Shown here in pieces: positions 10,370-55,579 of a stretch of DNA of 55,811 nt. The notes below the pieces were generated by a model that saw only the letters and a program-made list of their open reading frames with translations, did no database searches and was not told the DNA's origin. The DNA comes from an uncultured Eubacteriales bacterium (GTDB taxonomy: Bacteria > Bacillota > Clostridia > Christensenellales > Aristaeellaceae): the NCBI GenBank assembly GCA_900321565.1, contig ONWQ01000428.1, forward strand, positions 1-55,811, in the 5' to 3' direction. The translations under genes were made by a program, and so were the position numbers. How positions within the stretch are numbered: the stretch's first letter is position 1; each line of letters starts with the position of its first letter.

Positions 10370-10420
10370 GGCCTCAGCTCACAGGCAAGTGAGTAAAGAA
10401 TATGATGGAGTGAATAAGGC

Positions 10421-23794: not shown

Positions 23795-23821
23795 AAGAAC
23801 ACAATACCCGAGAAACAGGAA

Positions 23822-23853: not shown

Positions 23854-23888
23854 GACTATGCGGGTGATTCAGCGAAGAAAGGGGGTTG

Positions 23889-24554: not shown

Positions 24555-24557
24555 GGA

Positions 24558-26372: not shown

Positions 26373-26376
26373 GAGA

Positions 26377-28101
26377 TCACCTCCTGCCAGGTACGGTTCG
26401 GAGAATGCGCATCAGGTTTTCGATATCCACAGGTTTGGCAATGTGCCCGTTCATTCCGCATTGATGCGCTTTTGATATGTCTTCTGCAAATGTGTTTGCT
26501 GTCATGGCAAAGATAGGAATGGTCTTCGCGTCCGCGTGAGCAGAGGCACGGATCTGTTCAGTGGCGGTATATCCGTCCATGACGGGCATCTGAATATCCA
26601 TAAGAATCAGGCTGTATGTGCCGGATGGTGCTTCAAGAAAATGTTGCACGGCTTCCTGACCGTTTTCGGCAGTATCGATCTTTGCTTGGGTCAGAGCAAG
26701 GATTTCTGAAGCGATTTCACGGTTAATCAGGTTATCTTCGACCAGAAGCAACGTACACCCCTGCAGGTCCGGATATGAAGTGCCGGGGGCCTGGCCGTCG
26801 CTTGTACTGAGTGTACCGGCGATACCGTTAAGCAGAGAATTTCTGAAGAAAGGAACCGGAATGAATGTGACAATACCACATTTCTGAGCCCGGTATTCGA
26901 TATTGTTCCAGTTGACATCGCTGACAAGGATAAGAGGCATATCTGGCATGGAATGGTGCAGATAGTCTGCAAATTCCAGTACGTCCTGGCTGTCAGTGAT
27001 TTCCTTGCCAAGCAGAATCATGTCAAAAGGCTGATTCCTGTACCGGGCATCCGTAATGAGTGTCAGTGCCTCCGAGACGGTTCCTGCGATCCGGGTATAG
27101 ACAGATGTGTCTTTAAGACAGTGCAGAAATCGTTCCTGAGAGGGTTTATCCGATTCAACAATGAGCAGGCTCAGGGACGGGAGCAGCGGTCGGCTGGATT
27201 GCTTTGTGTCTATTTTCAGCGGAATAGAAATGGTTACGGTTGTTCCTGCTCCCGGAGTACTGAGAATATGGATCGTACCATGCATGGCATCAATCAGTTT
27301 TTTGACAATACTCATGCCGAGGCCGGTGCCTTCAATGCCAGACATGGTAGAAGTCTGAACGCGTTCGAATGGATCATAAATATGTTCAAGGAAATCCGGT
27401 GTCATTCCGATTCCGTTATCCCGGCATACGAATTCCAGAACACATTGGTCAGTGCTGAGCTTTGTGGACACGGACAGTGTGATGCTCCCGCCGTCCGGTG
27501 TATACTTGATGGCGTTACTGAGAATGTTAAGGTAAATCTGCCGCAGACGAAGAATGTCACCGCACAGGTCTTCTTCTGTAATCCCATCGATGTCGAGTTC
27601 AAGCGTGTGCTTTTTTGCCTCCACAAGTGGCCGGGTCATGACCAGAAGATCATGCAGAAGATTTCCTATGGAGAAGACAGCCTCATGAATCTGGAGACGA
27701 CCGGAATTGATATGTGACATTTCCAGGACATCATTGACCAGATTCAGCAGATGCCCGCTGGCAGTTTCAATTTTGGTCAGAGCATCAATGACCCGGTTTT
27801 TTTCATCAATGTGTTTTTTGGCCAGTACGGTCATTCCGATTATGGCGTTCATGGGCGTACGGATATCATGCGACATGTTACTCAGGAACGCTTCCTTGGA
27901 AGCGTTGGCTTCCTCGACTTCCTGAAGTCTCAGCAGAAGCCGGTTTTTTTCCTCGGCTTCATGGTCCAGCGGACAGAGCAGCAGAAGCAAGCCGTCGGAC
28001 AGAACGGCTGTCTCTGTAACACGGTTTGAATCAAAATCATCCGTCTGATAAAGCAGAATATTGCTTCTGGCGGGATCAGTAATAGCATATGCGTATTTCA
28101 T
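26377..28101 (-). CDS. Soluble hybrid sensor histidine kinase (HisKA, HATPase_c, a pseudo-receiver and a receiver)
   Basis: H-box SNMSHDIRTPMNAIIGM, N-box LSNAIKYT, G1 DNGIGM and G2 GTGLGMS are all present. The first receiver-like module lacks the acceptor Asp (FDMILLGKEI). The second is canonical (LLLVEDN...LILMDIQMPVMDG...KP). There is no TM segment, and only about 60 aa precede the H-box. Confidence 0.9.
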   Translation of the reverse strand: MKYAYAITDPARSNILLYQTDDFDSNRVTETAVLSDGLLLLLCPLDHEAEEKNRLLLRLQEVEEANASKEAFLSNMSHDIRTPMNAIIGMTVLAKKHIDEKNRVIDALTKIETASGHLLNLVNDVLEMSHINSGRLQIHEAVFSIGNLLHDLLVMTRPLVEAKKHTLELDIDGITEEDLCGDILRLRQIYLNILSNAIKYTPDGGSITLSVSTKLSTDQCVLEFVCRDNGIGMTPDFLEHIYDPFERVQTSTMSGIEGTGLGMSIVKKLIDAMHGTIHILSTPGAGTTVTISIPLKIDTKQSSRPLLPSLSLLIVESDKPSQERFLHCLKDTSVYTRIAGTVSEALTLITDARYRNQPFDMILLGKEITDSQDVLEFADYLHHSMPDMPLILVSDVNWNNIEYRAQKCGIVTFIPVPFFRNSLLNGIAGTLSTSDGQAPGTSYPDLQGCTLLLVEDNLINREIASEILALTQAKIDTAENGQEAVQHFLEAPSGTYSLILMDIQMPVMDGYTATEQIRASAHADAKTIPIFAMTANTFAEDISKAHQCGMNGHIAKPVDIENLMRILRTVPGRR

Positions 28102-28167
28102 AAATGTACCTCGTTCGGGGGTAATTCTTTTTGGCTCTCTGATGAGAAATGATTATGCTGTCGTGCT

Positions 28168-28202
28168 TATAATATATTGTTTTTTGCATAAGAACAATAT
28201 AT
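28168..28202 (+). promoter_or_regulatory. TATAAT box overlapped by a perfect 10-bp inverted repeat (candidate operator) in the divergent region between the kinase operon and the xylan operon
   Basis: TATAAT at 28168-28173. ATATATTGTT (28172-28181) and AACAATATAT (28193-28202) are exact reverse complements separated by 11 nt. No convincing -35 element is seen. Confidence 0.3.
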
Positions 28203-28344
28203 GAGGAGCTGAAATTATGGTCCGACCATCCATCAAGGCAGGAAAATCTGCTGTGAGCACGAAAAATCAGGATACGGTAACAGAGGACAGAAGCCTCTGA
28301 TGATGTTTCTTTATCAGGGGTGCTAAAGAAATCAAGCGACAGGA

Positions 28345-29136
28345 ATGAAAACAATGCAGAGTCGTGAATGGATACCTGGGGTGTACCAGATTCAGGATAG
28401 TATGGGTGTCATGATGACACTGGTTGCAGGCCATAAACAGGCGTTGCTGATTGATACGGGATACGGCCTGGAAGATGTGAGAGCGGCAATTCAGAAACTG
28501 ACGGACCGGCCGGTTCAGGTGTTGCTGACGCATGGACATCATGATCATGCGCTGGGAGCAAGATGGTTCAGCATGGTATGGCTTGCTGCGAATGAATCGA
28601 GTGTGTTTCAGAAATATACATCGGAACCCTGGCGCAGGCGGGTGATGCGGCAGGCAGAGCAGAAAGGACTGCAGGTACCGGAAGATTTCCTGACAGCACC
28701 GATGGCAGAACCCCGGTTCCTCCGGGATACGAGCATAGATCTGGGCGGCTTTCATGCAGAAATCCTGATGTGCCCGGGGCATACCCCGGGTTCATGCGTG
28801 ATCAGGATTCCGGAGGCAGATCTTCTGATTACCGGGGACGACTGGAATCCATGCACATGGCTCTGGTTTCCGGAAGCATTGCCGGTACAGCAGTATCGAA
28901 AGAACCTGGAGCAGGTATTCGCATTGCCATTCCGGCATGTTCTGTGCTCACACGCAGCAGGTCTGTTTTCCAGAGAAGACATGCGCCAGTTCCTGGACGG
29001 GATTACAGATGTTCAGATTCAGTCAGCGGGCATGACGGATGAAGGGAACGAAATGGGGATCCGGACAGCGACGATTTTTCTGGAGCATGGATACAGGCTG
29101 GTTTTCGATGCGGATAAGGCAAAAGGGGACAAGTGA
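28345..29136 (+). CDS. MBL-fold metallo-hydrolase
   Basis: 263 aa with the HxHxDH motif in LLTHGHHDHALG and a later CPGHTPGS. An alternative ATG exists at 28354. Confidence 0.85.
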   Translation: MKTMQSREWIPGVYQIQDSMGVMMTLVAGHKQALLIDTGYGLEDVRAAIQKLTDRPVQVLLTHGHHDHALGARWFSMVWLAANESSVFQKYTSEPWRRRVMRQAEQKGLQVPEDFLTAPMAEPRFLRDTSIDLGGFHAEILMCPGHTPGSCVIRIPEADLLITGDDWNPCTWLWFPEALPVQQYRKNLEQVFALPFRHVLCSHAAGLFSREDMRQFLDGITDVQIQSAGMTDEGNEMGIRTATIFLEHGYRLVFDADKAKGDK

Positions 29137-29137
29137 T

Positions 29138-30634
29138 ATGGAATATACAATTCAGGTGCAGCCCGGCGCGCACATGGACTTTGAAAACCATGCATGTGAC
29201 TGTATCGGAACCGGTCGAATGGATCTTGCACTTCAGGAAGAATACCAGGAAGAGCTCAGACAGGTACAGAGATTATGCCATTTCCGGCATATCCGTGGTC
29301 ATGGGCTTTTTTCCGACGGAATGGCGATCTATGCACCGGTAACGGATGCGGACGGTATCCGGCATGATCAGTATTGCTTTACATATCTGGACCGGGTAAT
29401 GGACAGTTACAGGAAACTTGGCCTGACTCCTGTGCTGGAACTTGGGTTCATGCCTTCCCAGATGGCCAGTGGGAACCAGACATTGTTTTACTGGAAGGCC
29501 AATGTTACACCGCCTGCAGAGGAGAAACGATGGACGGCCCTGATTGAGGCAACACTGGAGCATCTGTGTGAACGCTACGGCAGGAAAGAAGTTGCGCTGT
29601 GGCCGGTCGAGGTCTGGAATGAACCGAACCTTCCTGGGTTCTGGGAGAATGCGGACAAACAGGCATACTTCCGGCTCTACGAAATCTCCGTACAGGCTGT
29701 TCGGCGTGTGGTTCCGGGAATTCGTGTCGGAGGACCGGCGATCTGCGGCGGAACCGGATCTTTGGAATGGGTGCGTGATTTTCTGGCCTGCTGCCGGGAA
29801 CGGAAGCTGCCTGTGGACTTCCTGACCAGACATACATATATGGGACAGAAACCGGAGCGGAAAGGCCGGTATCTGTATCATGAAATGTGCAGACCGGACG
29901 ACCTGATTGATGAGGTCCGGGCAACCCGGAGCGTCATGGAAGAATTCGAAGAGTACAGAAGACTGCCGATTTATATTACAGAGTTCAATACCAGCTATAA
30001 TCCGTTCTGTCCGATCCATGATACCTGCAGGAATGCCGTGATTCTGTGCAGCCTGCTTTCAAAACTCGGGGATGTGGCAGACAGTTACAGCTACTGGACT
30101 TTTGGGGATGTTTTTGAAGAACAGGGTGTACCCGCAACTTTGTTCCATGGAGGTTTTGGGCTTATGGCTGCTAGCTGTATACCCAAGCCGAGCCTGTGGG
30201 CGTTTCACTTTTTTGCAAACCTGGAAGGTGAATGCGTGCACCGGGACAGTCGCAGTCTGATCCTGCACAGGGAAGACGGATCATATGAAATGATACTCTG
30301 GCATCCTGACGAAGAGGTGCAGGAAACAGAAATCATACGGATTGAACTTCCATGGGAAAACCAGGCAACGGTCCTGAGCAGGAGAATAGATGAAACGCAC
30401 GGGAACCCGTTAAAGGTATGGCTGGACATGGGGCAGCCCAGGAATCTGCGAGAGGAAGAGCTTGGGTTCCTGAAGAACGCTGCCTGCCCTGAAACAGTGA
30501 GTCAGTGTATGACAGCGCAAGATGGCAGGATCACACTGGAGTTCACGCTGAAAAAGAATTCATTCTGTCATATCAGGCTGATGAAGCATGCGGGTCTGCA
30601 GGAGACCGGATATTTGCCGGATATGTATCTGTAA
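29138..30634 (+). CDS. xynB: GH39 beta-xylosidase
   Basis: The protein from the ATG at 29138 (1 nt after the upstream TGA) aligns by eye along its full length with Thermoanaerobacterium XynB. Matching blocks are CIGTGRMDLALQEEY, YWKANVTPP, the acid/base VWNEPNL, VGGPAICGG, the nucleophile ITEFNTSY, and YWTFGDVFEEQGVP..FHGGFGL. There is no signal peptide. Confidence 0.9.
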   Translation: MEYTIQVQPGAHMDFENHACDCIGTGRMDLALQEEYQEELRQVQRLCHFRHIRGHGLFSDGMAIYAPVTDADGIRHDQYCFTYLDRVMDSYRKLGLTPVLELGFMPSQMASGNQTLFYWKANVTPPAEEKRWTALIEATLEHLCERYGRKEVALWPVEVWNEPNLPGFWENADKQAYFRLYEISVQAVRRVVPGIRVGGPAICGGTGSLEWVRDFLACCRERKLPVDFLTRHTYMGQKPERKGRYLYHEMCRPDDLIDEVRATRSVMEEFEEYRRLPIYITEFNTSYNPFCPIHDTCRNAVILCSLLSKLGDVADSYSYWTFGDVFEEQGVPATLFHGGFGLMAASCIPKPSLWAFHFFANLEGECVHRDSRSLILHREDGSYEMILWHPDEEVQETEIIRIELPWENQATVLSRRIDETHGNPLKVWLDMGQPRNLREEELGFLKNAACPETVSQCMTAQDGRITLEFTLKKNSFCHIRLMKHAGLQETGYLPDMYL

Positions 30635-30647
30635 GGAGGGTAAAGCA

Positions 30648-32480
30648 TTGAATCAGGAATCGGATCGTGCCTGGCTCGCAGCACCGGTAAACGGCGAACC
30701 GGATTTTACGAGCCCTGCAGAGGCAGCAAAATGGGAACTGAGACAGGGATCGGTGAAACTGGGAATCCATGAAGTGCCAGAGCTGTATTTAGAGCCGGAA
30801 ATGGATGAAGCCTATGAAATTACCGGATCCGGAATCCGTGGAGGACGCACTGGAATTCTGCAGGGCGTGTTCAGGTATCTGGAATGCAGGGCCTGCGGAT
30901 ATGATTTGCCCTCGGGTGTCCAGCGTCCCAGGTATGCGCTGCGTATGATGAACTGCTGGGATAATCTGGACGGGAGTGTGGAACGTGGATATTCAGGTCC
31001 GTCGATCTGGTTTCGGAATGGTAACCTGGAATATGACAGAGCTATGCTGTGGCAGACCGCGAGAATGCTGGCGTCCAGCGGTATCAATGTTCTGTGTATC
31101 AACAATGTCAACGTGCTGGAGCCTGCACAGGAATTAATCGGAGACCTGTTGCCTGCTGTGGCAGAGCTGGCACGAAACTTCAGAATGTATGGTATTCGTC
31201 TGATGCTCTCCGTTGATTTCTCGCAACCAATCCGTGAAGGCCTGGCAACAGCGGATCCGCTCGACCCACAGGTACGGGCATGGTGGCATAAACGGGCCGA
31301 CATGGTTTATGCACAGATTCCGGACCTTGCAGGTTTTCTGGTGAAAGCAGACAGCGAACATCGCCCCGGGCCCTTCAGCTATGGGAGAAACCATGCAGAT
31401 GGAGCGAACATGCTTGCAGAAGCACTGGCACCGCATGGAGGAGTTCTGGTATGGCGTGCGTTTGTGTATAATTGCCAGCAGGACTGGAGAGATGTGATGA
31501 CAGACCGGCCCAAGGCGGCATATGATACATACATGCCACTGGATGGCCGGTTCGCGGATAATGTGATTCTGCAGGTTAAACACGGGCCTTTTGATTTTCA
31601 GGTACGGGAACCGGTCTCGCCGTTACTCCTTGCCATGAAACACACGCGCCTCTGCATGGAAGTCCAGCTGGCACAGGAGTATACCGGGCAGCAGATAGAC
31701 CTGTACGCCATGAATCCGATGTGGCATGAAATCATGCAGGAGATCCCGGAAGAGAATCTTTGCGCTGTGGCAGCCGTAGGGAACCTGGGAAGGGGATTTT
31801 TCCTTACAGGTCACCCGATGGCAGCGGTGAACCTCTATGGTTTCGGGCGCTTTGGATGGAATCCCGGGGCTGATCCGGAGCATGTTATTCGTACCTGGGT
31901 GCACCTGAGTTTTTCCTTGCCTGCGGAACAGGAGCAGAAACTGACAAAACTGCTGATGCACAGTCGTGAAGTTTATGAAAACTATACTGCAACCCTGGGG
32001 CTGAACTGGATGATTACACCTGCACAGCATTACGGACCGAATCCGATGGGATATGAATATCAGGCATGGGGGACATACCATCGTTCGGATCGGAACGCAA
32101 CAGGCATAGACCGAACGATAAACGGCACCGGATACACACGGCAGTATCCGGAGGCACTTTGCAGGAAATATGAGAACCTGGATACATGTCCGGAGCGCCT
32201 GCTGCTGTTTTTTCACAGGCTTCCCTATACTTATGTCATGCAGGATGGACGGACACTGATTCAAAGAATCTATGATGATCATTTCCTGGGCTGTGAGCAG
32301 ACCAGAGCAATGCAGATGGTGCTGGAAGAACTGTCTCTTCCGGAACGTGTTGCAGAAGAAACACGGAACCGGATGGCCAGGCAGGTGAGAAACGCCAGAG
32401 AATGGTGTGATATTGTAAACTCGTTCTTCTACCGCTATTGTGGAATCCCGGATGCACGGGGAAGAGTGATCTATTCATAA
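30648..32480 (+). CDS. aguA: GH67 alpha-glucuronidase
   Basis: AGGAGG lies 8 nt upstream of the TTG at 30648. VKADSEHRPGPFSYGRNHADGANMLAEALAPHGGVLVWRAFVY and the following blocks are characteristic of GH67. There is no signal peptide. Confidence 0.9.
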   Translation: MNQESDRAWLAAPVNGEPDFTSPAEAAKWELRQGSVKLGIHEVPELYLEPEMDEAYEITGSGIRGGRTGILQGVFRYLECRACGYDLPSGVQRPRYALRMMNCWDNLDGSVERGYSGPSIWFRNGNLEYDRAMLWQTARMLASSGINVLCINNVNVLEPAQELIGDLLPAVAELARNFRMYGIRLMLSVDFSQPIREGLATADPLDPQVRAWWHKRADMVYAQIPDLAGFLVKADSEHRPGPFSYGRNHADGANMLAEALAPHGGVLVWRAFVYNCQQDWRDVMTDRPKAAYDTYMPLDGRFADNVILQVKHGPFDFQVREPVSPLLLAMKHTRLCMEVQLAQEYTGQQIDLYAMNPMWHEIMQEIPEENLCAVAAVGNLGRGFFLTGHPMAAVNLYGFGRFGWNPGADPEHVIRTWVHLSFSLPAEQEQKLTKLLMHSREVYENYTATLGLNWMITPAQHYGPNPMGYEYQAWGTYHRSDRNATGIDRTINGTGYTRQYPEALCRKYENLDTCPERLLLFFHRLPYTYVMQDGRTLIQRIYDDHFLGCEQTRAMQMVLEELSLPERVAEETRNRMARQVRNAREWCDIVNSFFYRYCGIPDARGRVIYS

Positions 32481-44430: not shown

Positions 44431-44466
44431 AAAAATCTCTGCCGCATGAATGAACACGCGGCAGAG
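44431..44466 (-). terminator. Rho-independent terminator of the arginine operon
   Basis: The minus strand reads CTCTGCCGC, a 12-nt loop, GCGGCAGAG, then ATTTTT, immediately after the carB-fusion stop at 44470. Confidence 0.65.
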
Positions 44467-44469: not shown

Positions 44470-47400
44470 TTAATAATCAAAAGTACCTTCATAGACGAGT
44501 ACGGCAGGCCCGGTAAGCGTGATCTGCTGGTTTGATTCGGTGTAGCGTACCACCAGATCGCCACCAAGCAGTTTTACGGTTATATCTTCATCTGCCGCGC
44601 AATAGCCGTTCTGTACGGCAGCTACCACTGCAGCACAGGCGCCGGTACCACAGGCAAGCGTTTCACCGTTACCTCGTTCCCAAACACGCAGGCGCAGTGT
44701 GTTGCGGTTGACGACGCGGACAAATTCCGTGTTGATCCGGTCGGGAAATACTGATGCATATTCGAACTGCGGGCCGATGCTTTCCAGGTCCAGAGCATCA
44801 ATAGAATCACAGAAGATAACGCAATGCGGGTTTCCTGTATCGACTCGTGTGATCTGCCAGCTTTGTCCGGCAAGCTCAAGTGTTTCACAGACATTCCCGG
44901 ATGTGCGTGTCTGGCCATCGAGCCGGGGCATAAGCGTGGCTTGACCCATACTCACAGAGACAGAGCTGACACGACCGTCACGCAGGTATAGATGCAGCGG
45001 ATAAATGCCACTGGCGGTTTCAATGGTCATATACTCTGAATGAATATACCCGTTGTCATACAGGTATTTGGCGACACAGCGGATACTGTTCCCGGCCATT
45101 CTGCCTTCGCTTCCGTCCTGATTGAAGGAACGCATGCTGGCGTCTGCAACCCGGGAACGCTCGATCAGTACAATCCCGTCTCCACCAATGCCATAATGTG
45201 GTGTACAGAGACTGACACAGAGCGATTCGGGACAGGTCAGGCTTCCGTCAAAGTTCTCAACGAATATGTAATCATTCCCGCAACCATGCATCTTGGCAAA
45301 CCGGATTTTCTGTCTCCATGGCCGGAGATGATTAATGTCAACCAATTCAGTATTGGCAAGTGTGTACCGGCTTTCTATGATCTGAGCAAGTGCGCCTGCG
45401 GTATCCACGGAAGTCAGACAGGGAATACCGAGCTGCATGGCATGCCTGTGCAACAGCGTATAATCACCGACAGTCGTATCCTTCACAGCACCTGTATAGA
45501 CTATATAGGAAAGCTTTCCGGTGTTCATCAGCTGATACAGTACGAGGCTTTCGGTGGCGTTCGGAACACTTTCTACCGGTATGCCAAGCTGAGCAATGGC
45601 ATCAGCGGTTCCGCTTGTGGCATACAGTTTGAGTCCGAGATCATAAAATCGTTTTGCAAGGGAGATGATTTCCTGATAATCATTCTCTTCAACGGAAATC
45701 AGAACCCCACACTGACCGGGTGCATGTCGCTCGGGTACGGTAAAGCCGGCAGCCAGGAGCCCTTTAAACAGGGCTTCAGCCATGTTTTTCCCAAGACCGA
45801 GAACTTCACCTGTGGATTTCATTTCCGGACCGAGTATGGAATTGGCATCATTCAGTTTTTCAAAGGAGAACACCGGCACCTTGACAGCAACATAGGGTGG
45901 TGTGCGGTACAGACCTGTGCCATATCCCTGGTCTGCAAGTTTCTCACCGAGCATGACACGGCTGGCCAGGTCAACCATGGGAACCCCTGTTACCTTGGAT
46001 ATATAGGGGACGGTGCGGGATGCGCGTGGATTGACTTCGATTACGTATAGCTCATTATCAAAGATCAGATACTGAATATTCACCAGTCCCTGAGTTCCCA
46101 GGGCAAGGGCCAGTTTCCGGGAGCAGTCACAGATCTTCTGGAGGAACGGATCCGTCAGGTTATAAGGCGGGTAAACGGCAATGGAATCCCCGCTGTGTAC
46201 ACCGGCACGCTCAATGTGCTCCATGATTCCGGGAATCAGGACATCTTTTCCGTCTGAAATGACGTCAACTTCCAGTTCAATCCCGGGCATGTATTTATCA
46301 ATCAGCACAGGGTTGTCAATTCCGCCGCTCAGAATTCTGGTCATGTAATCCATCGTCTGTTCGCGTGTATGCACGATGGTCATGTTCTGACCGCCGATGA
46401 CATAAGAAGGCCGCAAAAGTACAGGATACCCGAGCATTTCGGCTGCCTGGACCGCTTCTTCCATGGACTGGACAGCTGTCCCCCGCGGGCGGGAGATGCC
46501 GAAACTCTCCAGAAGTGTATCAAACCGGCTGCGATCTTCTGCCATGTCAATGGAATCAGCAGAAGTCCCAAGGATACGGATGCCGTGTCTGTCCAGATAC
46601 TGCGTCAGTTTGATGGCGGTCTGCCCACCAAACGCTACCACGACGCCTATGGGCTGTTCAACGGCAATAATATGCATGACGTCTTCAGGACAAAGTGGTT
46701 CAAAGTAGAGACGGTCAGCCGTGTCATAGTCTGTGGATACAGTTTCCGGGTTATTATTGACTATGACGACATCATACCCCATTTCCTGGAGTGTCCATAC
46801 ACAGTGCACAGAAGAATAATCGAACTCAATTCCCTGACCGATACGGATCGGCCCGGAACCAAGTACCATAATGACGGGTTTTCCGGAGCGGGGAAAGCTT
46901 CGTGCTTCGCATATGGTATCAGCTGATGAATAAAAGTATGGAGTGGCTGCGTCAAACTCTCCACCGCAGGTGTCGACCATTTTATAGCTCAGACTGCGGG
47001 CAGGCCAGTCGTTTTTTTCACTGATTCTCCGGATGGCTGCATCGGTATATCCCTTGCGTTTGGCTTCGAGATACAGTGCGTCGCTTATGTCCTCTTTTTT
47101 CAGGCGCGCCTCAAGTCTGACAAGGTTCAGCAGCTTATTGAGGAAGAAGGGATCAATTTTTGTGGCCTGATGAATGCATTCGACAGTCCAGCCGTTTTCC
47201 AGTGCTTCAAAAACCGTAAAGAGCCGGTGATCATCCTGTGTCATGAGCCGCTCTTTGATCGGCGCGTCGGTAAGCGGTGCTGCATGCAGCGTATCCAGTC
47301 CGATCTCAGCACCACGTACGGCTTTCATCAGGGCTTCTTCAAAACACTGGCCTATGGCCATGACTTCGCCGGTGGCCTTCATCTGGGTGCCCAGTCTGCG

Positions 47401-48507
47401 GGATGCATTGGCAAACTTGTCAAATGGCCATTTGGGAAGCTTGACGACAACATAATCCAGAGTGGGTTCAAAGCATGCACAGGTCTTCTTGGTGATATCG
47501 TTCAGGATCTCATCAAGGGTATACCCCAGAGCAATCCGTGTTGTAATTTTGGCAATAGGATACCCGGTAGCCTTTGAGGCAAGGGCAGACGACCTGGAAA
47601 CCCGGGGATTGACTTCGATAACAGCATACTCAAAACTATCAGGATTCAGCGCAAACTGACAGTTACATCCGCCGACAATCCCCAGTGCACTGATCATGTC
47701 AAGGGATGCCGTGCGAAGCATCTGATATTCTTTATCTGAGAGTGTGAGAGCCGGTGCAACGACAATGGAATCGCCTGTGTGGATTCCGACAGGATCCATG
47801 TTTTCCATGGAGCATACAGCGATTACATTCCCTGCGGCGTCCCGCATGGTTTCAAACTCGATTTCTTTCCACCCGGCAATGCTTTTTTCTACCAGAATCT
47901 GTGTTATAGGCGAGGCGTCGAGACCTGCCTGTGCAATCGTCTGCATTTCTTCTGCATTGCTGGCAATCCCGCCACCACTGCCGCCCAGCGTAAATGCAGG
48001 GCGAACAATTACAGGGTATCCGATATGCTCAGCGGCAAGCAGGGCTCCAGTCAGACTGGTTGCAATCTCGGAAGGAACAACAGGCTGGCCAATGGCCTGC
48101 ATGGTATTACGGAACAGCTCACGGTCTTCTGCCTTATCTATGGCGTCCATATCGGATCCAAGAAGCCGTATGCCAAGACGGTTGAGTACACCGCTGCGCG
48201 ACAATTGCATGGCCAGTGTGAGTGCGGTTTGTCCGCCAAGACCCGCGAGCAGACCATCTGGACGCTCATGTTCCAGGATTCTTGTCAGTGTTGTTACGTT
48301 CAGAGGTTCCAGATAGATCTCATCTGCCAGATGCTTATCCGTCATAATGGTGGCAGGATTGGAGTTGACCAGAACGACATTAATGCCTTCTTCACGGAGA
48401 ACACGGCAGGCCTGAGCTCCGGCATAATCGAACTCAGCCGCCTGCCCGATGACGATCGGACCTGAGCCAATAACCAGAACTTTTCGAATGGTATGATCCT
48501 TAGGCAA
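44470..48507 (-). CDS. carB: Carbamoyl-phosphate synthase large subunit fused in frame to a C-terminal DapF-fold (diaminopimelate epimerase-like) domain
   Basis: The CarB part (about 1067 aa) begins (M)PKDHTIRKVLVIGSGPIVIGQAAEFDYAG. It contains both ATP-grasp halves and an MGS-like tail (GVLISV...LYATSGTA...). The ORF then continues with no stop into KIRFAKMHGCGNDY...NQDGSEGRMAGNSIRC...ERGNGETLACGTGACAA...VYEGTFDY (44473-45306). GGGGAGG lies 8 nt upstream of the TTG at 48507, whereas the GTG at 48516 abuts the SD. Confidence 0.9.
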   Translation of the reverse strand: MPKDHTIRKVLVIGSGPIVIGQAAEFDYAGAQACRVLREEGINVVLVNSNPATIMTDKHLADEIYLEPLNVTTLTRILEHERPDGLLAGLGGQTALTLAMQLSRSGVLNRLGIRLLGSDMDAIDKAEDRELFRNTMQAIGQPVVPSEIATSLTGALLAAEHIGYPVIVRPAFTLGGSGGGIASNAEEMQTIAQAGLDASPITQILVEKSIAGWKEIEFETMRDAAGNVIAVCSMENMDPVGIHTGDSIVVAPALTLSDKEYQMLRTASLDMISALGIVGGCNCQFALNPDSFEYAVIEVNPRVSRSSALASKATGYPIAKITTRIALGYTLDEILNDITKKTCACFEPTLDYVVVKLPKWPFDKFANASRRLGTQMKATGEVMAIGQCFEEALMKAVRGAEIGLDTLHAAPLTDAPIKERLMTQDDHRLFTVFEALENGWTVECIHQATKIDPFFLNKLLNLVRLEARLKKEDISDALYLEAKRKGYTDAAIRRISEKNDWPARSLSYKMVDTCGGEFDAATPYFYSSADTICEARSFPRSGKPVIMVLGSGPIRIGQGIEFDYSSVHCVWTLQEMGYDVVIVNNNPETVSTDYDTADRLYFEPLCPEDVMHIIAVEQPIGVVVAFGGQTAIKLTQYLDRHGIRILGTSADSIDMAEDRSRFDTLLESFGISRPRGTAVQSMEEAVQAAEMLGYPVLLRPSYVIGGQNMTIVHTREQTMDYMTRILSGGIDNPVLIDKYMPGIELEVDVISDGKDVLIPGIMEHIERAGVHSGDSIAVYPPYNLTDPFLQKICDCSRKLALALGTQGLVNIQYLIFDNELYVIEVNPRASRTVPYISKVTGVPMVDLASRVMLGEKLADQGYGTGLYRTPPYVAVKVPVFSFEKLNDANSILGPEMKSTGEVLGLGKNMAEALFKGLLAAGFTVPERHAPGQCGVLISVEENDYQEIISLAKRFYDLGLKLYATSGTADAIAQLGIPVESVPNATESLVLYQLMNTGKLSYIVYTGAVKDTTVGDYTLLHRHAMQLGIPCLTSVDTAGALAQIIESRYTLANTELVDINHLRPWRQKIRFAKMHGCGNDYIFVENFDGSLTCPESLCVSLCTPHYGIGGDGIVLIERSRVADASMRSFNQDGSEGRMAGNSIRCVAKYLYDNGYIHSEYMTIETASGIYPLHLYLRDGRVSSVSVSMGQATLMPRLDGQTRTSGNVCETLELAGQSWQITRVDTGNPHCVIFCDSIDALDLESIGPQFEYASVFPDRINTEFVRVVNRNTLRLRVWERGNGETLACGTGACAAVVAAVQNGYCAADEDITVKLLGGDLVVRYTESNQQITLTGPAVLVYEGTFDY

Positions 48508-48512
48508 GCGTA

Positions 48513-49565
48513 TCACCTCCCCATCATCTGAAGAAAGCGGTCAAAAAGGAATCCAGTGTCCTGCGGTCCGGAACAGGCTTCCGGATGAAACTGCACAGTC
48601 ATGCACTGCTTTCCGGGGTATAGCATCCCTTCACAGCTGCCATCGTTGGCATTTCGGAAAGTTTCCAGGCCAATTCCGGCAAGGCTTTCGGAAACAACAG
48701 CATAACCGTGATTCTGACTGGTGATGAACGTACGGCCAGTCTGTATTTCCTTGACAGGCTGGTTAGCTCCGCGGTGACCATAATGCAGTTTGATGGTTTT
48801 GCCACCCATAGCCAGCGCTGTGAGCTGATGCCCGAGACAGATGCCAAAAACAGGCACTTTTCCGATCAGCTGCCGGATCTGCCGGATCGCAAACTGATTC
48901 TCTTCCGGATCACCGGGACCGTTGGATAGCATGATTCCGTCAGGATTCAGTGCGAGGACCTGAGCCGCGCTGGTTGTTGCCGGAAGGACAGCCACTTCAC
49001 AACCACGGTTCTGAAGCGAACGGATGATGTTCATTTTGGCGCCATAATCTATAAGAACAACTCGGTACCGGATTTCTCCGATTGCAGGATAGACTGCTGG
49101 AGAATGGCGGGTAACCTTTTCTACAACCCCCTGAACCCGGTAATTCTGAAGACATGAAAGGTCTTCAGGCACAGACTGGCAGATCAGAGCATTCATGACT
49201 CCGTATTCACGGATGGTTCGGGTCAGATGCCGCGTATCGATACCGCAGATGCCGGGTATATGATGCTCTTCCAGAAAGGATTGTAAGGTGCCTGCAGAAC
49301 GGAAATTGGACGGTGCATCACAGAGCTCGCGTACAATGTATCCTTTCAGAGCCGTCTTTCCCTCAAAATCCTCCGGAATGACACCGTAATTTCCGATCAT
49401 GGGAAAAGTCTGAATGACAATCTGACCGGCATAGCTGGGATCCGTCAGTGTTTCCAGGTACCCTACCATACCGGTCGTGAAGACAAGCTCACCGACAGCA
49501 TCGGACGGTTCACCGATGGAGATTCCTTCATAGATATCACCGTTGGCAAGGACTAGATATGCCAC
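48513..49565 (-). CDS. carA: Carbamoyl-phosphate synthase small (glutaminase) subunit
   Basis: The N-terminus LVLANGDIYEG is typical. The GATase triad region is FGICLGHQL and the C-terminus has VQFHPE. The GTG at 49565 lies 10 nt after AGGAG. The longest ORF starts at GTG 49574, only 1 nt after the SD. Confidence 0.9.
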   Translation of the reverse strand: MAYLVLANGDIYEGISIGEPSDAVGELVFTTGMVGYLETLTDPSYAGQIVIQTFPMIGNYGVIPEDFEGKTALKGYIVRELCDAPSNFRSAGTLQSFLEEHHIPGICGIDTRHLTRTIREYGVMNALICQSVPEDLSCLQNYRVQGVVEKVTRHSPAVYPAIGEIRYRVVLIDYGAKMNIIRSLQNRGCEVAVLPATTSAAQVLALNPDGIMLSNGPGDPEENQFAIRQIRQLIGKVPVFGICLGHQLTALAMGGKTIKLHYGHRGANQPVKEIQTGRTFITSQNHGYAVVSESLAGIGLETFRNANDGSCEGMLYPGKQCMTVQFHPEACSGPQDTGFLFDRFLQMMGR

Positions 49566-49570
49566 GCCGT

Positions 49571-50560
49571 TCACACTCCTGTTAATGTAGCAGCCATGAC
49601 GGCCTTGATGGTGTGCATCCGGTTTTCTGCTTCATCGAACACAATGGAAGCCGGGGATTCAAACACTTCGTCCGTGACTTCCATGGCATCAATGTGGAAT
49701 CGCGCATGAATATCCCGGCCAATGGTTGTTTTCAGGTCGTGAAATGCCGGCAGACAATGCATGAAGCGGCACTGAGGCCCGGCTGTCTGCATGAGGGCGC
49801 TGTTGACCTGGTATGGCAGCAATGCCTCAATACGTTCCTGCCATACGGCATCGGGTTCACCCATGGAAACCCAGACATCGGTATAGAGTACATCAGCGCC
49901 GCTGACAGAAGACAGGTCTGAGGAAAGCTCAATCTTTGCACCGGTTTCACTGGCGATCCGGTTGCATGTTTGAACCAGTGCGTCACCAGGCTGGTAAGCC
50001 TTAGGTGCACAGGCAACAAAGTGCATGCCAAGCTTGGCACAGCCAATCATGAGAGAGGATGCCATGTTATAGCGGGCATCACCGAGGAACACAAGCTTGC
50101 GTCCCTTCAGACTGCCAAAGTGTTCGCGGATGGTCAGCATGTCTGCCAGTACCTGGGTCGGATGGTATTCATTGGTAAGCCCGTTCCATACAGGCACTCC
50201 GGAATACCGGTCAAGGTCTTCGACTATACTCTGTTCAAACCCGCGGTATTCTATACCGTCAAACATCCGGCCAAGCACGCGCGCAGTATCCGGAATGGAT
50301 TCTTTTTTTCCGATCTGTGAACCGGAGGGATCCAGGTAAACCGGGTGCATGCCAAGGTCTGCGGCTGCGACTTCGAAAGCGCAGCGTGTCCGCGTACTTG
50401 TCTTTTCAAAGATCAGGGCTATATTTTTCCCTTCACATAAACGATGACTGATGCCCTGCTTCTTCTGGGCTTTCAGGGATGCAGCCAGATCCAGAAGATG
50501 CATAATCTCTTCGGGCGTGAAATCAAGAAGCGTAAGAAAGCTTTTTCCCTTCAGTGACAT
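49571..50560 (-). CDS. argF: Ornithine carbamoyltransferase
   Basis: The motifs STRTR, HPTQ, DVWVSMG and HCLPAFH are present. The product is 329 aa, and AGGAGG lies 7 nt upstream of the ATG. Confidence 0.9.
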
Positions 50561-50574: not shown

Positions 50575-51297
50575 TTAAAGTACTTTGGCAAGGAATGAGC
50601 GGAGACGTTCAGAGCGCGGATTGGAAAAGATCTGTTCCGGTGTTCCTTCCTCCAGGATCACGCCTTCATCCAGAAACAGTACGCGGTTGGATACTTCTCG
50701 TGCAAAGCCCATTTCATGCGTGACGACAACCATCGTCATGCCTTCCTGGGCCAGACGTTTCATGACATCGAGCACTTCTCCGACCATTTCCGGATCCAGC
50801 GCGCTTGTGGGTTCATCAAAGAGCATGACATCCGGTTCCATACACAGTGCACGTACGATGGCAACGCGCTGCTTCTGTCCGCCGGAAAGCTGTCCCGGAT
50901 AGTCCCGTGCACGGTCAGCGAGACCAACACGGCCAAGCAGTTCCATGGCTTTCTGTTCCGCCTGCGCCCGGGAACACTTTTTCAGCATGAGAGGTGCACA
51001 GGTCAGGTTATCGAGTACGGACATATGCGGGAAAAGATTGAACTGCTGGAAAACCATTCCCATTTTCTGGCGGTGAAGGTTCAGATTGACCTTTTTTCCG
51101 GTGAGTTCATTTCCTTCAAAAATAATGCTTCCTCCGGTTGGTGTTTCCAGAAGATTCAGACAGCGGAGGAATGTGGACTTCCCCGATCCGGAAGGCCCGA
51201 TCACGCAGATGACGTCTCCCTTATTGATGGTGACATCAATGCCGGCGAGTACATCAGCACCACCGAAATGTTTTTTCAGGTTCTTAACGGTGATCAT
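50575..51297 (-). CDS. Polar amino acid ABC transporter ATP-binding protein
   Basis: Walker [10 protein letters not shown], signature [11 protein letters not shown], Walker [12 protein letters not shown]. The 240-aa length is GlnQ/ArtP-like. Confidence 0.9.
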
Positions 51298-51970
51298 GCT
51301 TGCGTAGCCTCCCCTCGATAAGTTTTAGCAGCTGTGTGAGCAGGATAACCATGATCAGGTATGTGACTGCAACAATGAGCAGCGGGTTGATGGCATCATA
51401 GGTATTGTTTCGCACCAGATTTCCGGCGCGTGTCAGGTCAATGACCGCAACATACCCGGCAACGGAAGTCTCCTTGAGCAAAGCGATCATTTCATTGCCA
51501 ATGGCGGGAAGAATGTAGCGCATGGCCTGAGGGAGCACGATCCTGCGCATGGTCTGGAACCGGGACAGGCCAAGACTCCGGCCTGCTTCGGTCTGCCCGT
51601 GGTCAACGGCGTTCAGTCCGGAGCGGATCAGCTCTGCTACATAGGCACTGGAATTAATGCCGAATGCCAGAATCCCGACCGTGATCCCGTCAGCGCTGGC
51701 AAGAATGACGAAATAAAAAATCAGCAGAAGAACCACGACCGGGACTCCGCGGATGACTGTAACATAAATATCACAGAAGACGGCAAACGGTTTCAGTACC
51801 GGCACGCCTTCTGAAAAATTCTTTATAATGGCGATCAGCATGCCGAGGAAAACTCCGATACACAGAGCACCGAGAGTGAGAATGACAGTATTCTTCAGGC
51901 CTTTGAGCATGAGCTGGTCATAACCGGTTTCAATAAACGTTTCCTGCAGTTTAAGGATCCAGCTGTTCAA
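51284..51970 (-). CDS. Polar amino acid ABC transporter permease (HisMQ/GlnP family)
   Basis: The EAA-type loop is [44 protein letters not shown] lies 8 nt upstream of the TTG at 51970. The GTG at 51979 overlaps the SD. Confidence 0.85.
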
Positions 51971-51996
51971 GAAATCCACTCCTTTTTTACGATGGA

Positions 51997-52034
51997 AACA
52001 GCGAGGCAGGTCATGGCTGGCCTGCCCCGCTGTT
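51997..52034 (-). other. Intercistronic GC-rich stem-loop between the binding-protein and permease genes
   Basis: The minus strand reads AACAGCGGGGCAGG, a 10-nt loop, then CCTGCCTCGCTGTT (13 of 14 bp paired). No U-run follows. Confidence 0.5.
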
Positions 52035-52053
52035 ATAAACCAGACTGTCCGGA

Positions 52054-52818
52054 TTATTCAGCTGCTTCAGGAGCGGTATAGGGCGCTTCGTACTTGGCGA
52101 AGATTTCCTGAATGGTACCTGCGTCAAGAAGCTCGTGCAGGGCTTCATTCAGCTTGCTCTGCAGTTCTTCCTGGCCCTTGGCCATGGCGAAGGCATACGG
52201 TTCTGTTGTCATGGCATCGTCCAGGATCACCAGTTTCACATCATGCTCTGCATTGTATACCTTTACCATATCCGCAGCGGTCAGGTCATCAATGACCCAG
52301 GCGTCCACCTTGCCGTTGACCAGTGCGAGTTCTGCGTCTGCATTGGCGGCAAAGGGAGAAACATCATAGAAGTTCTTCATGCAGAAGGTTTCAGCGGTGG
52401 TACCGGTCTGTACCGAAATCTTTTTTCCGTCCAGGTCAGCCTTGGAAGTGATCGGACTGCCTTCGACAACGACAATCGCCTGTGCTGCCAGACAATAGGG
52501 GTCAGTGAACAGAGCGTTCTTTTTCCGCTGATCCGTAACAGATATACCGGACACACCAAGGTCAAACTTTCCGGCTTTAACGCCCGGAAGGACGGCTTCA
52601 AAATCCATCTGTTCAATCTGAAGTTCCATACCCAGTTTTTCACAGATCAGGTTCAGAATGTCAATTTCAATACCTACAGGAGCTTCACCTGCTGCAGGAT
52701 CGAGGTATTCGAAGGGAGGGAAATCAGGGCTGGTGGCAATGGTCAGTGTATCCGCCATGGCAGAGACCGCGGACAACATCAGGGCCAGGGCAAGCAGAAC
52801 AGCAAACAGTTTTTTCAT
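52054..52818 (-). CDS. Polar amino acid ABC transporter substrate-binding protein with a cleavable-type signal peptide and no lipobox Cys
   Basis: AAGGAG lies 9 nt upstream of the ATG at 52818. The signal peptide is MKKLFAVLLALALMLSAVSAMA/DT. It has a family 3 SBP fold (TSPDFPPFEY, GVSGISVT). The longer ORF reaching 52941 overlaps argG. Confidence 0.85.
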   Translation of the reverse strand: MKKLFAVLLALALMLSAVSAMADTLTIATSPDFPPFEYLDPAAGEAPVGIEIDILNLICEKLGMELQIEQMDFEAVLPGVKAGKFDLGVSGISVTDQRKKNALFTDPYCLAAQAIVVVEGSPITSKADLDGKKISVQTGTTAETFCMKNFYDVSPFAANADAELALVNGKVDAWVIDDLTAADMVKVYNAEHDVKLVILDDAMTTEPYAFAMAKGQEELQSKLNEALHELLDAGTIQEIFAKYEAPYTAPEAAE

Positions 52819-52837
52819 AAGGCGTTTCTCCTTTGTC

Positions 52838-54061
52838 TTACTTGGTTGTTTTTGCGTTGACCATGGCCTGTACCTGAATGGGAAGGCCAAAGAGATTGAT
52901 AAATCCGGCGGAGTCTTTCTGGTTGTAATCGCTCTCACCAAAGGTAGCGATATCTTCAGAATACAGAGAATAGGGACTCCAGAGTCCTGCCTTGATGATG
53001 TTTCCCTTATAAAGCTTCAGGCGGACTTTGCCGGTGACATGTTCCTGGGTCTTGTCCACAAAGGCGCTCAGTGCTTCGCGCAGCGGGGTAAACCACTGTC
53101 CGTTGTAGACGAGTTCTGCGAAGGTAACTGCAAGCTTCTGCTTTTCGTGCATGGTCATTTTATCCAGGCAGATGCTCTCCAGCGCTTCATGTGCCTTGTA
53201 GAGGATTGTGCCGCCAGGAGTTTCGTAGACGCCACGGCATTTCATGCCCACAAGCCGGTTTTCGACGATGTCAAGGATACCGATTCCGTTCTTTCCGCCG
53301 AGCTCGTTGAGCTTGAGAAGAATGTTCTTGGCACTCATGGCTTCGCCATTGAGTGCAACAGGCGTTCCCTGATTGAACTCCAGCTCAACGTATGTGGGTT
53401 CATCCGGTGCCTGAAGCGGGGATACTCCCATTTCAAGGAAGCCGGGCTTTTCATACTGAGGTTCATTTCCGGTGTCTTCCAGATCAAGGCCTTCGTGGGA
53501 AAGATGCCAGATGTTCTTATCCTTGGAGTAATTGGTTTCGCGGTTGATTTTCAGCGGCACATGATGCGCTTCAGCATAATCGATTTCTTCGTCCCTGGAC
53601 TTGATGGTCCATTCACGCCAGGGTGCAATGATCGGCATGGTAGGGGCAAAATGCTTGATGGCCAGCTCAAAGCGGACCTGATCATTTCCTTTCCCTGTGC
53701 AGCCATGGCATATTGCATCCGCATTTTCCTTGAGGGCTATTTCTACCAGCCCCTTGGCGATGCACGGACGTGCTGTGCTTGTGCCGAGCAGATACTCCTC
53801 ATAAATGGCGCCGGCCTTCATGGTAGGAATGATGAAATCCTCCACATAGGTGTCGGTCAGGTCCAGCACATACAGTTTCGATGCACCGGTTTTCAGGGCT
53901 TTTTCCTCCAGCCCTTCCAGTTCATCTGCCTGGCCGACGTTTCCGGAAACGGCAATGATTTCGGGATTGTTATAGTTTTCCTTCAGCCAGGGAATAATGA
54001 TCGAAGTATCCAAACCGCCGGAGTAGGCAAGTACGATCTTTTTGATGTCTTCTTTCTTCAT
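52838..54061 (-). CDS. argG: Argininosuccinate synthase
   Basis: AGGAGG lies 9 nt upstream of the ATG at 54061. [20 protein letters not shown] is the N-type ATP pyrophosphatase motif. [13 protein letters not shown] and the length of about 407 aa also fit. Confidence 0.95.
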
Positions 54062-54093
54062 GTCAGCAAACCTCCTTGCATATGACATAAGGG

Positions 54094-54330: not shown

Positions 54331-55512
54331 TCAGAATGTACCAGTTGTTTTGTCCAGCAGGCCGCTTTCTTGAATCTGCGAGACAGCCTGACGGATCTGT
54401 GCGGGAGGAAGGACAAGCGCGAAGCGCACATAGCCCTCTCCCTCAGGGCCGAAGCTTGAGCCCGGTGTGCAGATGACGCCGGCACGGTCCATGAGTGCCA
54501 GACAGAAATCCATACTTGACATGCCGGTTACGGGAATTTTCGCCCAGACAAACATGCTTCCGGCATTGCGCGGGACAGGCCAGCCGATGGCTGTCAACCC
54601 ATCGCAAAGAGCATCCCGTCGCTCCTGATAGCGCAGACATTGTGCCTTTATAACAGACCGGTCTGTTTTCAGCGCAGCAATGGCTGCCTTCTGAAGCGGG
54701 AGAAACATGCCAAAGTCAATCTGGCTGCGGAGCTTCCGGAAAGCAGCGACTACATCAGGCCGGCCAATCAGGAACGAAATCCGGGCGCCTGTCAGGTTAA
54801 AGGACTTGGACAGGGAGAAAAACTCGACCCCGGTGGATGCAGCATGTTCATACCCGAGGAAACTTCCGCCTTCCAGCCCGTCGTATATGATATCACTGTA
54901 CGCATTGTCGTGTACCAGAAGAATATGATGTTCGCGGGCGAAGGCAATGAGTCGGTTGTAAATCTCCGGCGTGCCGACGGAGCCCGTAGGATTGGAAGGC
55001 AGGGAAACTATCATATATCTGGCCCTGTCGGCCACATGTGCCGGTATGGCATCCAGATCCGGAAGAAAACCGGTGTGTTCACTGAGCGGATAGTACACGA
55101 TTTCAGCCCCTGCCATTTTGGCCCCTGCAATGAATACCGGATAGCAGGGTGATGGCAGAAGCACGGTATCCCCTGGATTACACAGTACCATGCCCAGATG
55201 GCCGATGCCTTCCTGAGAGCCGTAGCATGAAGCAATCATGTCAGGCGTGATGGTAACATGAAAGCGGGACTGGTAGTATTCACAGACGGCATTGAGCATT
55301 TCCGGAGTATCCCGGAGAGCATATTTCCAGTTCTCCGGATCCATGGCAGCCTCTGCCAGTGCCTGACGTATATGAACCGGCGTTTCAAAGTCAGGCGTGC
55401 CGATGGACAGATTCAGGAATGTTCTGCCCTGTGCTTCCAGCTGCAGGCGGCGTGTATTCAGCGCAGCAAAGACTTCATCGTCAAACCGGTTAAGACAATC
55501 TGAAAAATTCAT
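54331..55512 (-). CDS. Class I/II PLP-dependent aminotransferase (AspC/PatA/DapL-like; substrate not assignable)
   Basis: AAGGAGG lies 5 nt upstream of the ATG at 55512. The blocks LSIGTPDF, PSNPTG, the PLP-lysine block FSLSKSFNLTGARISF, and the C-terminal GYVRFALV are typical of class I enzymes. Confidence 0.85.
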   Translation of the reverse strand: MNFSDCLNRFDDEVFAALNTRRLQLEAQGRTFLNLSIGTPDFETPVHIRQALAEAAMDPENWKYALRDTPEMLNAVCEYYQSRFHVTITPDMIASCYGSQEGIGHLGMVLCNPGDTVLLPSPCYPVFIAGAKMAGAEIVYYPLSEHTGFLPDLDAIPAHVADRARYMIVSLPSNPTGSVGTPEIYNRLIAFAREHHILLVHDNAYSDIIYDGLEGGSFLGYEHAASTGVEFFSLSKSFNLTGARISFLIGRPDVVAAFRKLRSQIDFGMFLPLQKAAIAALKTDRSVIKAQCLRYQERRDALCDGLTAIGWPVPRNAGSMFVWAKIPVTGMSSMDFCLALMDRAGVICTPGSSFGPEGEGYVRFALVLPPAQIRQAVSQIQESGLLDKTTGTF

Positions 55513-55579
55513 ACTGGCCTCCTTCAAACCTCTTTAATGACCGGACCATCTCCGGAACAGGGTTCCTGCAACGAGCCGG

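Follow-up and report, generated by a model that had tools for sequence, protein, structure and literature searches.

What becomes of an epimerase domain that is joined to another enzyme and has lost one of its two catalytic thiols? The question is raised by a 55,811-nucleotide stretch of DNA from an uncultured Eubacteriales bacterium (assembly GCA_900321565.1, contig ONWQ01000428.1; the whole stretch is referred to here as the window), in which carB, the gene for the large subunit of carbamoyl-phosphate synthase (CPSase), runs in frame into a domain with the fold of diaminopimelate (DAP) epimerase, DapF. In this domain, the first catalytic cysteine is replaced by alanine. We analyzed the fused gene (carB~dapF), its relatives in other genomes and its neighborhood, and we tentatively interpret the domain as a former epimerase that would now serve CPSase as a ligand-binding module.

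Architecture of the fused protein and its catalytic residues

The elements of the fused open reading frame (ORF) are as follows.

44470..48516, minus strand: CarB-DapF fusion ORF of 1348 amino acids (aa), in a single frame throughout, with its stop codon at 44470-44472
45313..48516, minus strand: CarB portion, aa 1-1068, with both ATP-grasp halves, the oligomerisation domain and the allosteric domain (NF003671, Pfam)
45412..45672, minus strand: MGS-like allosteric domain, aa 949-1035 (Pfam; alignment to E. coli CPSase)
45307..45351, minus strand: junction, aa 1056-1070, NTELVDINHLRPWRQ, made up of the natural CarB C-terminus and a linker of about 8 residues
44473..45306, minus strand: DapF-fold domain, aa 1071-1348 (TIGR00652, DapF matches in the PDB, structure model, Foldseek)
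45094..45096, minus strand: Ala1141, codon GCC, in place of the first catalytic Cys (E. coli Cys73; alignment to solved DapFs)
44650..44652, minus strand: Cys1289, codon TGT, the second catalytic Cys (E. coli Cys217), kept within an intact ACGTG motif

The original prediction described a complete CarB that continues without a stop codon into the epimerase domain, and profile searches with Pfam and NCBIfam bore this out. Pfam placed CPSase_L_D1, D2, D3 and MGS, in that order, ahead of DAP_epimerase in the 1348-aa ORF. The CarB part, with all CPSase_L domains and the MGS-like allosteric domain, matched full-length and above cutoff in NCBIfam (NF003671, 1430 bits against a cutoff of 599, aa 5-1051; TIGR01369, 1394 bits against 1027). 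It also aligned with residues 573-1053 of E. coli CPSase (1bxr), an alignment obtained with a longer query, as a PDB search with the allosteric domain alone returned no match. The best explanation is that the ORF encodes what would be the functional CarB of an arginine operon. The remainder of the protein matched the NCBIfam model TIGR00652 over aa 1071-1345 (261 bits with the full protein, 265.8 bits with the isolated C-terminal 280 aa, cutoff 114.65), PF01678 (193 bits, cutoff 34.7) and DapF structures in the PDB with E-values down to 9e-66. The DNA of the junction contains neither a stop codon nor a change of frame. Separate translation of the DapF part from an internal ATG (Met1081) was considered and appeared unlikely, as the nearest GGAGA lies about 21 nt upstream and the product would be missing the first strand.

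A structure prediction of the fusion, one of the checks proposed with the original prediction, was run with AlphaFold2 (AF2) on aa 930-1348 and gave a predicted local distance difference test score (pLDDT) of 88.1 and a predicted template modelling score (pTM) of 0.80. The top Foldseek matches of this model were all DapF, with target-normalised template modelling scores (TM) of 0.78-0.89, the highest for 9mro, so that the window domain is predicted to have the two-lobed DapF fold. In the linker region, the model is of moderate confidence (pLDDT 64-71).

Of the two catalytic cysteines that characterize DapF, the window domain has only the second. HMMER alignments to the solved DapFs 2otn, 9mro and 3ejx placed the window's rmAGNS opposite sCGNG or mCGNG, which identifies Ala1141 as the residue at the first catalytic position, and aligned its lACGTG with the qACGTG or lACGTG of the solved proteins, in agreement with what had been predicted for both motifs. 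Because GCC is at least two base changes away from every Cys codon, Ala1141 is not the result of a single-base error. Residues of the DapF domain are numbered below as in E. coli DapF, apart from those with four-digit positions in the fusion; the length of the E. coli sequence used and all 11 landmark residues that we checked in it, including Cys73 and Cys217, were correct. We also considered whether the thiol had been relocated, with the Cys of the window's HGCGNDY (HGLGNDF in E. coli) as the candidate for compensation. This was rejected, as the same Cys is found in all 78 of the Cys-type Clostridial DapFs that were aligned, a sample biased towards that Cys by the scan pattern KMHGCGND, and is often T, S or another residue in the Ala-type relatives of the window domain (hereafter the Ala clade).

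It had been argued that a two-base epimerisation should fail with one thiol, and work on characterized enzymes supports this by analogy. In Corynebacterium glutamicum DapF (CgDapF), the equivalent Cys-to-Ala substitution, C83A, leads to an almost complete loss of activity (PMC5296763), and E. coli DapF(C73A,C217A) shows no DAP epimerisation, yet binds and activates RppH (PMC4227774). Since these variants lose their activity, it is very unlikely that the Ala-clade domain acts as an efficient two-base epimerase. The DAP recognition and carboxylate-binding residues, N11, N64, G74, N75, N157, N190, E208, R209, G218 and S/T219, are all present in the window domain. In the CgDapF complex, the conserved pocket residues bind DAP, Ala substitutions at the tested substrate-binding residues abolish activity, and the Ala mutant of the N11 equivalent is inactive (PMC5296763).

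Spread of the fusion, loss of the thiol and selection

The fusion itself had been put forward as a novelty, which may be fair for the literature and is not for the databases. In a sample of one genome per species, 80 species-representative loci were fetched, of which 37 encode the fusion (uncut ORFs of 1317-1408 aa), usually with two Cys, and 43 encode a standalone DapF. Carriers include Ruminococcus albus KH2T6, Neglectibacter caecimuris, Acutalibacter caecimuris and an isolate labelled Oscillospiraceae bacterium 42-9. Our literature search found no paper describing a CarB-DapF fusion and nothing relevant on natural DapF variants without a catalytic cysteine; it may be fair to call the fusion undescribed in the literature, abundant as it is in public databases under routine names. 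When 32 full-length fusion ORFs were aligned, isolate genomes included, the junction was ungapped and of equal length ('..NTELVDINxMRxxxxxxxFxKM..'), which indicates a single origin and excludes an assembly artefact. The fusion is ancient and is found in many Oscillospirales-like Clostridia of gut and rumen. When the CarB tail and the DapF domain together served as the query, at least 120 clusters were retrieved at 56-71% identity; nearly all carry MGS+DAP_epimerase, most are cut by short contigs, and their database names are 'diaminopimelate epimerase, partial' or 'carbamoyl-phosphate synthase large subunit'.

We then asked how the first thiol is distributed among these proteins. It is kept in 27 of the 37 fused loci ('MCGNG/A') and is replaced in the remaining ones by Ala (L001-L006 and L008), Gly (L030 and L033) or Ser (L056). 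Ala, or rarely Gly, occupies this position in every one of the at least 120 close database homologues of the window, so that both the fusion and its Ala recur in relatives of the window, as the original prediction had proposed to check. In the 131 Ala/Gly/Ser-type fused domains that we compared (the Ala clade plus L030, L033 and L056), 124 have A at position 73, 5 have G and 2 have S, and none has Cys. The Ala group was monophyletic on a tree of the DapF domain and on a tree of 1000 ungapped CarB columns. On the CarB tree, each of the two Gly-type loci has a Cys-type sister, L043 in the case of L030 and a group in the case of L033; therefore, this thiol was lost on at least three occasions. 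The sequence P0171, which has Ala together with Cys-type residues at the clade-marker positions, is probably a fourth loss, and in L030, L033 and P0171 the remaining pocket residues are intact.

The loss was seen only in fused proteins. None of the 43 standalone DapFs and 8 tandem second copies lacks the first thiol (0/51), compared with 10/37 fused domains (Fisher's exact p = 8e-5, a significance that is overstated given that the sequences are phylogenetically non-independent). We also searched 1.84 billion representatives exhaustively, and among the top 150 matches, 137 have Cys at this position and 12 have Ala or Gly. Those Ala or Gly matches with an informative N-terminus begin inside CarB or have a long N-terminal extension (P0124), the others are short fragments, and no free-standing Ala-type DapF was found among the top 150. 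The unusual feature of the window is its membership of the Ala subclade, the fusion itself being common.

Apart from position 73, the catalytic pocket has hardly changed. N64, G74, N75, N157, H159, N190, E208, R209, C217, G218 and T219 are 98-100% conserved in the 131 domains, and Cys217 is kept in 130 of them. N11 is Asp in 26 of the 131. These 26 Ala-clade sequences (for example P0056-P0062) form a sub-branch with GDDY instead of GNDY, a change at a substrate-contacting residue. The ratio of DapF to CarB divergence was 1.40 for Ala-Ala pairs compared with 1.49 for Cys-Cys pairs, and in close Ala-clade pairs the domain had a dN/dS of 0.04-0.14, with similar values for the CarB part. By these measures, the Ala-type domain is under purifying selection and no less constrained than the two-Cys fusions. 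Such constraint, together with the near invariance of the other pocket residues, leaves the earlier suggestion of a decayed dapF captured through a lost stop codon unsupported. The fused copy of L056 (4276-6168) served as a negative control for decay: its carB frame is broken, a standalone dapF lies about 700 bp downstream, and its pocket is degraded (N64L, C73S, G74A, N75S, H159S, E208K, C217G and T219A), all of which mark it as an apparent pseudogene. L056 has lost eight pocket residues; by contrast, the window domain is not decaying.

Standalone dapF genes were also seen in tandem with the fusion. In eight loci with Cys-type or decayed fusions (L019, L020, L022, L023, L028, L029, L052 and L056), a standalone dapF lies just downstream, as in L028, where the two copies are at 10205-11065 and 12874-13692. 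These tandem loci usually have a DapL-like gene further downstream (26-29% tblastn identity, with no family-model check), and their fusions have an altered N-terminal motif, KMSAC[SRK]NDY, with both cysteines kept. It is possible that the tandem-locus fusions represent an intermediate towards loss of catalysis.

Other arrangements were also observed. The fusion occurs in metagenome-assembled genomes (MAGs) labelled as non-Firmicutes, namely L018 (Treponema sp.), L030 (Chitinispirillia) and L003 and L004 ('Chloroflexi'), labels that could reflect mis-binning, mislabelling or horizontal transfer. In L035, L039, L054, L078 and L079, a standalone dapF comes immediately after carA, with carB missing from between the two (in L039, carA 561-1610 and dapF 1630-2463). 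Some of these standalone sequences group with fused ones on the DapF tree, and the loci may have arisen by deletion of carB from a former fusion or by a fission event. Finally, the set P0259 / P0225 / P0124 contains other DapF fusions: a protein of 776 aa joins DapF to a Mur ligase, one of 687 aa joins a class I/II aminotransferase to DapF, and one of 512 aa joins an ornithine carbamoyltransferase N-domain to a Gly-type DapF that has most Ala-clade marker residues. The 512-aa protein may have arisen by deletion from argF-carAB~dapF, or its assembly may be chimeric.

Candidate roles of the altered domain

Two further elements of the fusion are changed in the Ala clade.

45205..45234, minus strand: Ala-clade Cys triad C1095/C1100/C1104 (C-x4-C-x3-C) in the first DapF helix (alignment, AF2 model)
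45478..45498, minus strand: loop of the allosteric domain, aa 1007-1013, aligned with E. coli N1015-R1021 'NTTSGRR'

Compared with the 78 Cys-type DapFs, the Ala clade shows the switches Y15F, N17E, C18N, x25C, x30C, S34C, C49E, C73A, D198N and M260L. Its cysteines have been reshuffled relative to the Cys-type proteins: the triad was gained, Cys18 became Asn and Cys49 became a Glu that is invariant in the clade. When only fused proteins were compared, 6 of 12 clade-specific sites fell within 38 residues of the N-terminal lobe beside the tether (binomial p = 0.003). The idea that the triad forms a metal or Fe-S site found no support, because 8-20% of the clade have A, S, V or G at each of its positions; the positions behave like small buried residues, and a metal site seems unlikely. 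On the CarB side, the loop shows the Ala-clade switches S1007Y, S1009G and R1013D (E. coli equivalents N1015, T1017 and R1020/1021). This loop presumably contacts the nucleotide effector in E. coli CPSase bound to inosine monophosphate (IMP), and its changes suggest that the nucleotide-effector site was altered in the same lineage that lost the DapF thiol. The Thr of the ornithine site (E. coli T1042, window T1035) and the Thr related to uridine monophosphate (UMP) (E. coli T977, window T970) are both conserved, their roles being taken from PMC6245113.

The interpretation we favor, tentatively, is that the domain is an epimerase-dead, pocket-intact, ligand-binding module on CPSase, so that the accessory or regulatory module named among the options of the original prediction fits the evidence best. 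The ancestral state would be an old carB-dapF fusion with both thiols, followed by dapL in many loci and presumably a working DAP epimerase. In the window lineage, the change of the first thiol to Ala should have abolished LL/meso-DAP epimerisation, with purifying selection preserving the fold, the second thiol and the DAP-binding pocket in its entirety; the dapL neighbor was lost, and the gene now stands last in an arginine operon. Fusion may have given the DapF domain a second role tied to CarB, with catalysis dropped and ligand binding kept. The Ala-type domain would bind DAP or a similar L-amino acid. It is tethered to the CarB allosteric domain through about 8 residues of fixed linker, and there the closing of its two lobes on a ligand could modulate or stabilise CPSase. 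An organism that needs genuine DAP epimerisation would carry it out elsewhere. A non-catalytic module is plausible because CgDapF closes its two lobes upon ligand binding (PMC5296763) and E. coli DapF regulates RppH without its thiols, and a bypass of the epimerase is plausible because E. coli dapF deletion mutants grow, surviving on trace epimerase activity, and a non-homologous DapF2 is present in some Firmicutes (bioRxiv 10.1101/2024.10.14.618325).

Several points weigh against this interpretation. Both the binding of a ligand and its effect on CPSase are steps that we infer, and it is not obvious what physiological purpose control by DAP would serve in a CPSase of the arginine pathway. The confidence of the linker in the model is such that rigid coupling to the allosteric domain is not established. 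The retention of Cys217 in all but one of the 131 domains seems to exceed the needs of simple binding and hints at chemistry, and if Ala-clade genomes that have no other DAP epimerase make their own lysine or DAP, the domain must be catalytic. A broader proposal, which we regard as doubtful, is that a former enzyme became either a new allosteric or sensor module of CPSase, in which the domain binds DAP or an amino acid of similar size, opening and closing of the lobes controls the allosteric domain and the thiol was removed repeatedly, or alternatively a new single-thiol enzyme.

A single-thiol catalyst is the main rival to the ligand-binding module, and we consider it unlikely. Cys217, His159 and Glu208, together with the two helix-dipole carboxylate sites, would carry out one-base chemistry, such as elimination, isomerisation or stereospecific protonation of a DAP-like substrate, or the domain might epimerise slowly with water in the Ala cavity or, in one sub-branch, Asp11 as the second proton carrier. 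Such an enzyme would account for the invariance of Cys217, His159 and Glu208 across a deep clade in which position 73 is never Cys. That position 73 alone was affected in at least three lineages, though about a dozen residues are equally critical, looks selected and specific, and the 26-sequence sub-branch adds N11D beside the reaction center. In addition, the one-base 3-hydroxyproline dehydratases and PhzF are structural neighbors in Foldseek, and trace epimerase activity is enough for E. coli to live on (bioRxiv 10.1101/2024.10.14.618325). However, Cys-to-Ala mutants of DapF are nearly inactive (PMC5296763; PMC4227774) and the clade shows no general replacement base, as some members have A, S or V in place of the new Cys and only about 20% have D11. 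The recognition sub-site is unchanged and hence indicates no new substrate, and partner genes for a new pathway were not found, the downstream genes varying among loci.

An improbable alternative is that the domain is a purely structural relic, needed for the folding or oligomerisation of CarB and involving neither ligand nor chemistry. A short linker of fixed length and prolonged co-evolution with CarB would fit this, as would the pTM of the two-domain model, the clustering of clade-specific sites beside the tether and the finding that E. coli DapF elutes as a dimer (PMC4227774). It would leave unexplained why about 11 buried pocket residues and Cys217 are 98-100% conserved in a clade that is 56-70% identical to the window, when the freely decaying copy in L056 lost eight of those residues. 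A priori, the ORF could also be an artefact or pseudogene, with carB joined to a dying dapF through loss of a stop codon, a frameshift or a chimeric assembly, and some database homologues are indeed fragmented by assembly errors (L081). We consider it vanishingly unlikely here, given the identical junction in 32 independent full-length ORFs, some of them from isolate genomes, the low dN/dS, the Ala common to at least 120 clusters and the distance of GCC from any Cys codon.

Comparison with known systems places the window domain close to canonical DapF (TIGR00652 / PF01678; B. anthracis 2otn, cyanobacterial 9mro, C. glutamicum 5m47), with which it shares the two-lobed fold, the residues for recognition and carboxylate binding, and the second catalytic Cys together with the His and Glu that partner it. 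Unlike canonical DapF, it has Ala for the first Cys, forms the C-terminal domain of a CarB, is not linked to dapL and has changes in the N-terminal lobe. The two-Cys CarB-DapF fusions (R. albus, Neglectibacter, Acutalibacter and many MAGs, all known as database entries only) have the same architecture, junction and fusion origin, but they keep Cys73 and many are followed by dapL or a second standalone dapF, whereas the window clade has Ala, arginine operons and an altered allosteric loop. The E. coli DapF-RppH system (PMC4227774; PDB 6d13) is a precedent for a DapF fold that acts through protein contacts with epimerase activity dispensable; it differs in that the partner is RppH rather than CPSase, the contact is non-covalent and the epimerase is normal. 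Trans-3-hydroxy-L-proline dehydratase and PhzF share the superfold and have one catalytic position naturally replaced, with changed chemistry. These one-base relatives are only 14-16% identical to the window domain (TM about 0.5-0.6) and have other pockets, whereas the window keeps the DAP pocket, and the window protein had no Pfam or NCBIfam match to the one-base proline-racemase/PhzF families. In contrast, the O-ureidoserine racemase DcsC (7vdy), which matches the window domain at E = 1.6e-38, and the 2,4-diaminobutyrate racemase PddB (PMC8225329) are DapF homologues that act on other amino acids; both keep the two thiols and have altered recognition sites, the opposite of the pattern in the window domain.

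If the favored interpretation is correct, the clade would be a natural and deeply conserved case of an enzyme domain turned into a pseudoenzyme or a one-base variant by removal of a single thiol, a change that arose at least three times and only when DapF was fused to CarB. It would offer a tractable system for studying how cofactor-independent racemase folds are repurposed and for asking whether the CPSase of gut and rumen Clostridia has an unrecognised regulatory input. Proof that a ligand controls CPSase, or that a single thiol performs a new reaction, would add to the interest of the finding. In practice, it also matters that these proteins receive the automatic annotation 'diaminopimelate epimerase' and that DapF activity would be wrongly assigned to their genomes by pathway-reconstruction tools.

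The arginine operon and its surroundings

The following elements surround the fused gene.

48513..49574, minus strand: carA, CPSase small subunit, with a 4-base overlap of its end with the carB start
49571..50560, minus strand: argF, ornithine carbamoyltransferase (translation; 43% tblastn match to the gene upstream of carA in L008)
50575..52941, minus strand: polar amino-acid ABC transporter (ATPase, permease and Lys/Arg/Orn-type binding protein)
52838..54088, minus strand: argG, argininosuccinate synthase (NF001770, 570 bits)
54331..55527, minus strand: aminotransferase heading the same-strand cluster, nearest to LL-DAP aminotransferase models and below all cutoffs
44437..44466, minus strand: terminator-like hairpin of 12 pairs plus a T-run, directly after the carB~dapF stop

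The order on this strand is aminotransferase, argG, ABC transporter, argF, carA and carB~dapF, which agrees with the arginine-operon setting given in the original prediction. The hairpin marks the end of the operon, with carB~dapF as its closing gene; beyond it lie a promoter-like site and then a MATE transporter gene. Adjacency of carA and carB was found in 32 of the 37 fused loci, and the other five are cut by a contig end. The aminotransferase at the head of the cluster had its best match in NF005815 (421 bits against a cutoff of 545) and is 26-31% identical to the dapF-adjacent aminotransferases of other loci, including the verified DapL of L010.

The surroundings of dapF differ between Cys-type and Ala-type loci. 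An aminotransferase gene lies behind dapF in many loci of the Cys type, whether fused or standalone; in L010, it begins 21 bp past the end of the fusion and encodes a true DapL (TIGR03542, 503 bits; cutoff 365). No dapL was found downstream of the Ala-type fusion in the window, L004, L006 or L081-L083: a sugar kinase lies downstream on the opposite strand in L004, and unrelated genes follow in L082 and L083. In L081, a full arginine operon is seen, which reads argG-argH-argC-argJ-argB-argD-argF-carA-carB~dapF. We found no lysine or DAP genes in the 55.8-kb window. A second dapF was likewise absent, both there and, in Ala-clade loci, from the DNA within 10 kb of the fused gene.

Two other ORFs of the window were without a convincing family match, one at 9065-10288 (407 aa) and one at 24558-26372 (604 aa), the latter with a sub-threshold HD match (21.8 bits against a cutoff of 22). 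Elsewhere, at 21782-32480 and 1726-5973, the window carries a hemicellulose-degradation set (GH120-like, GH39 and GH67) and a 1415-aa BcrAD/BadFG-type CoA-enzyme activase, a combination that fits a fibre-degrading anaerobe of the gut or rumen.

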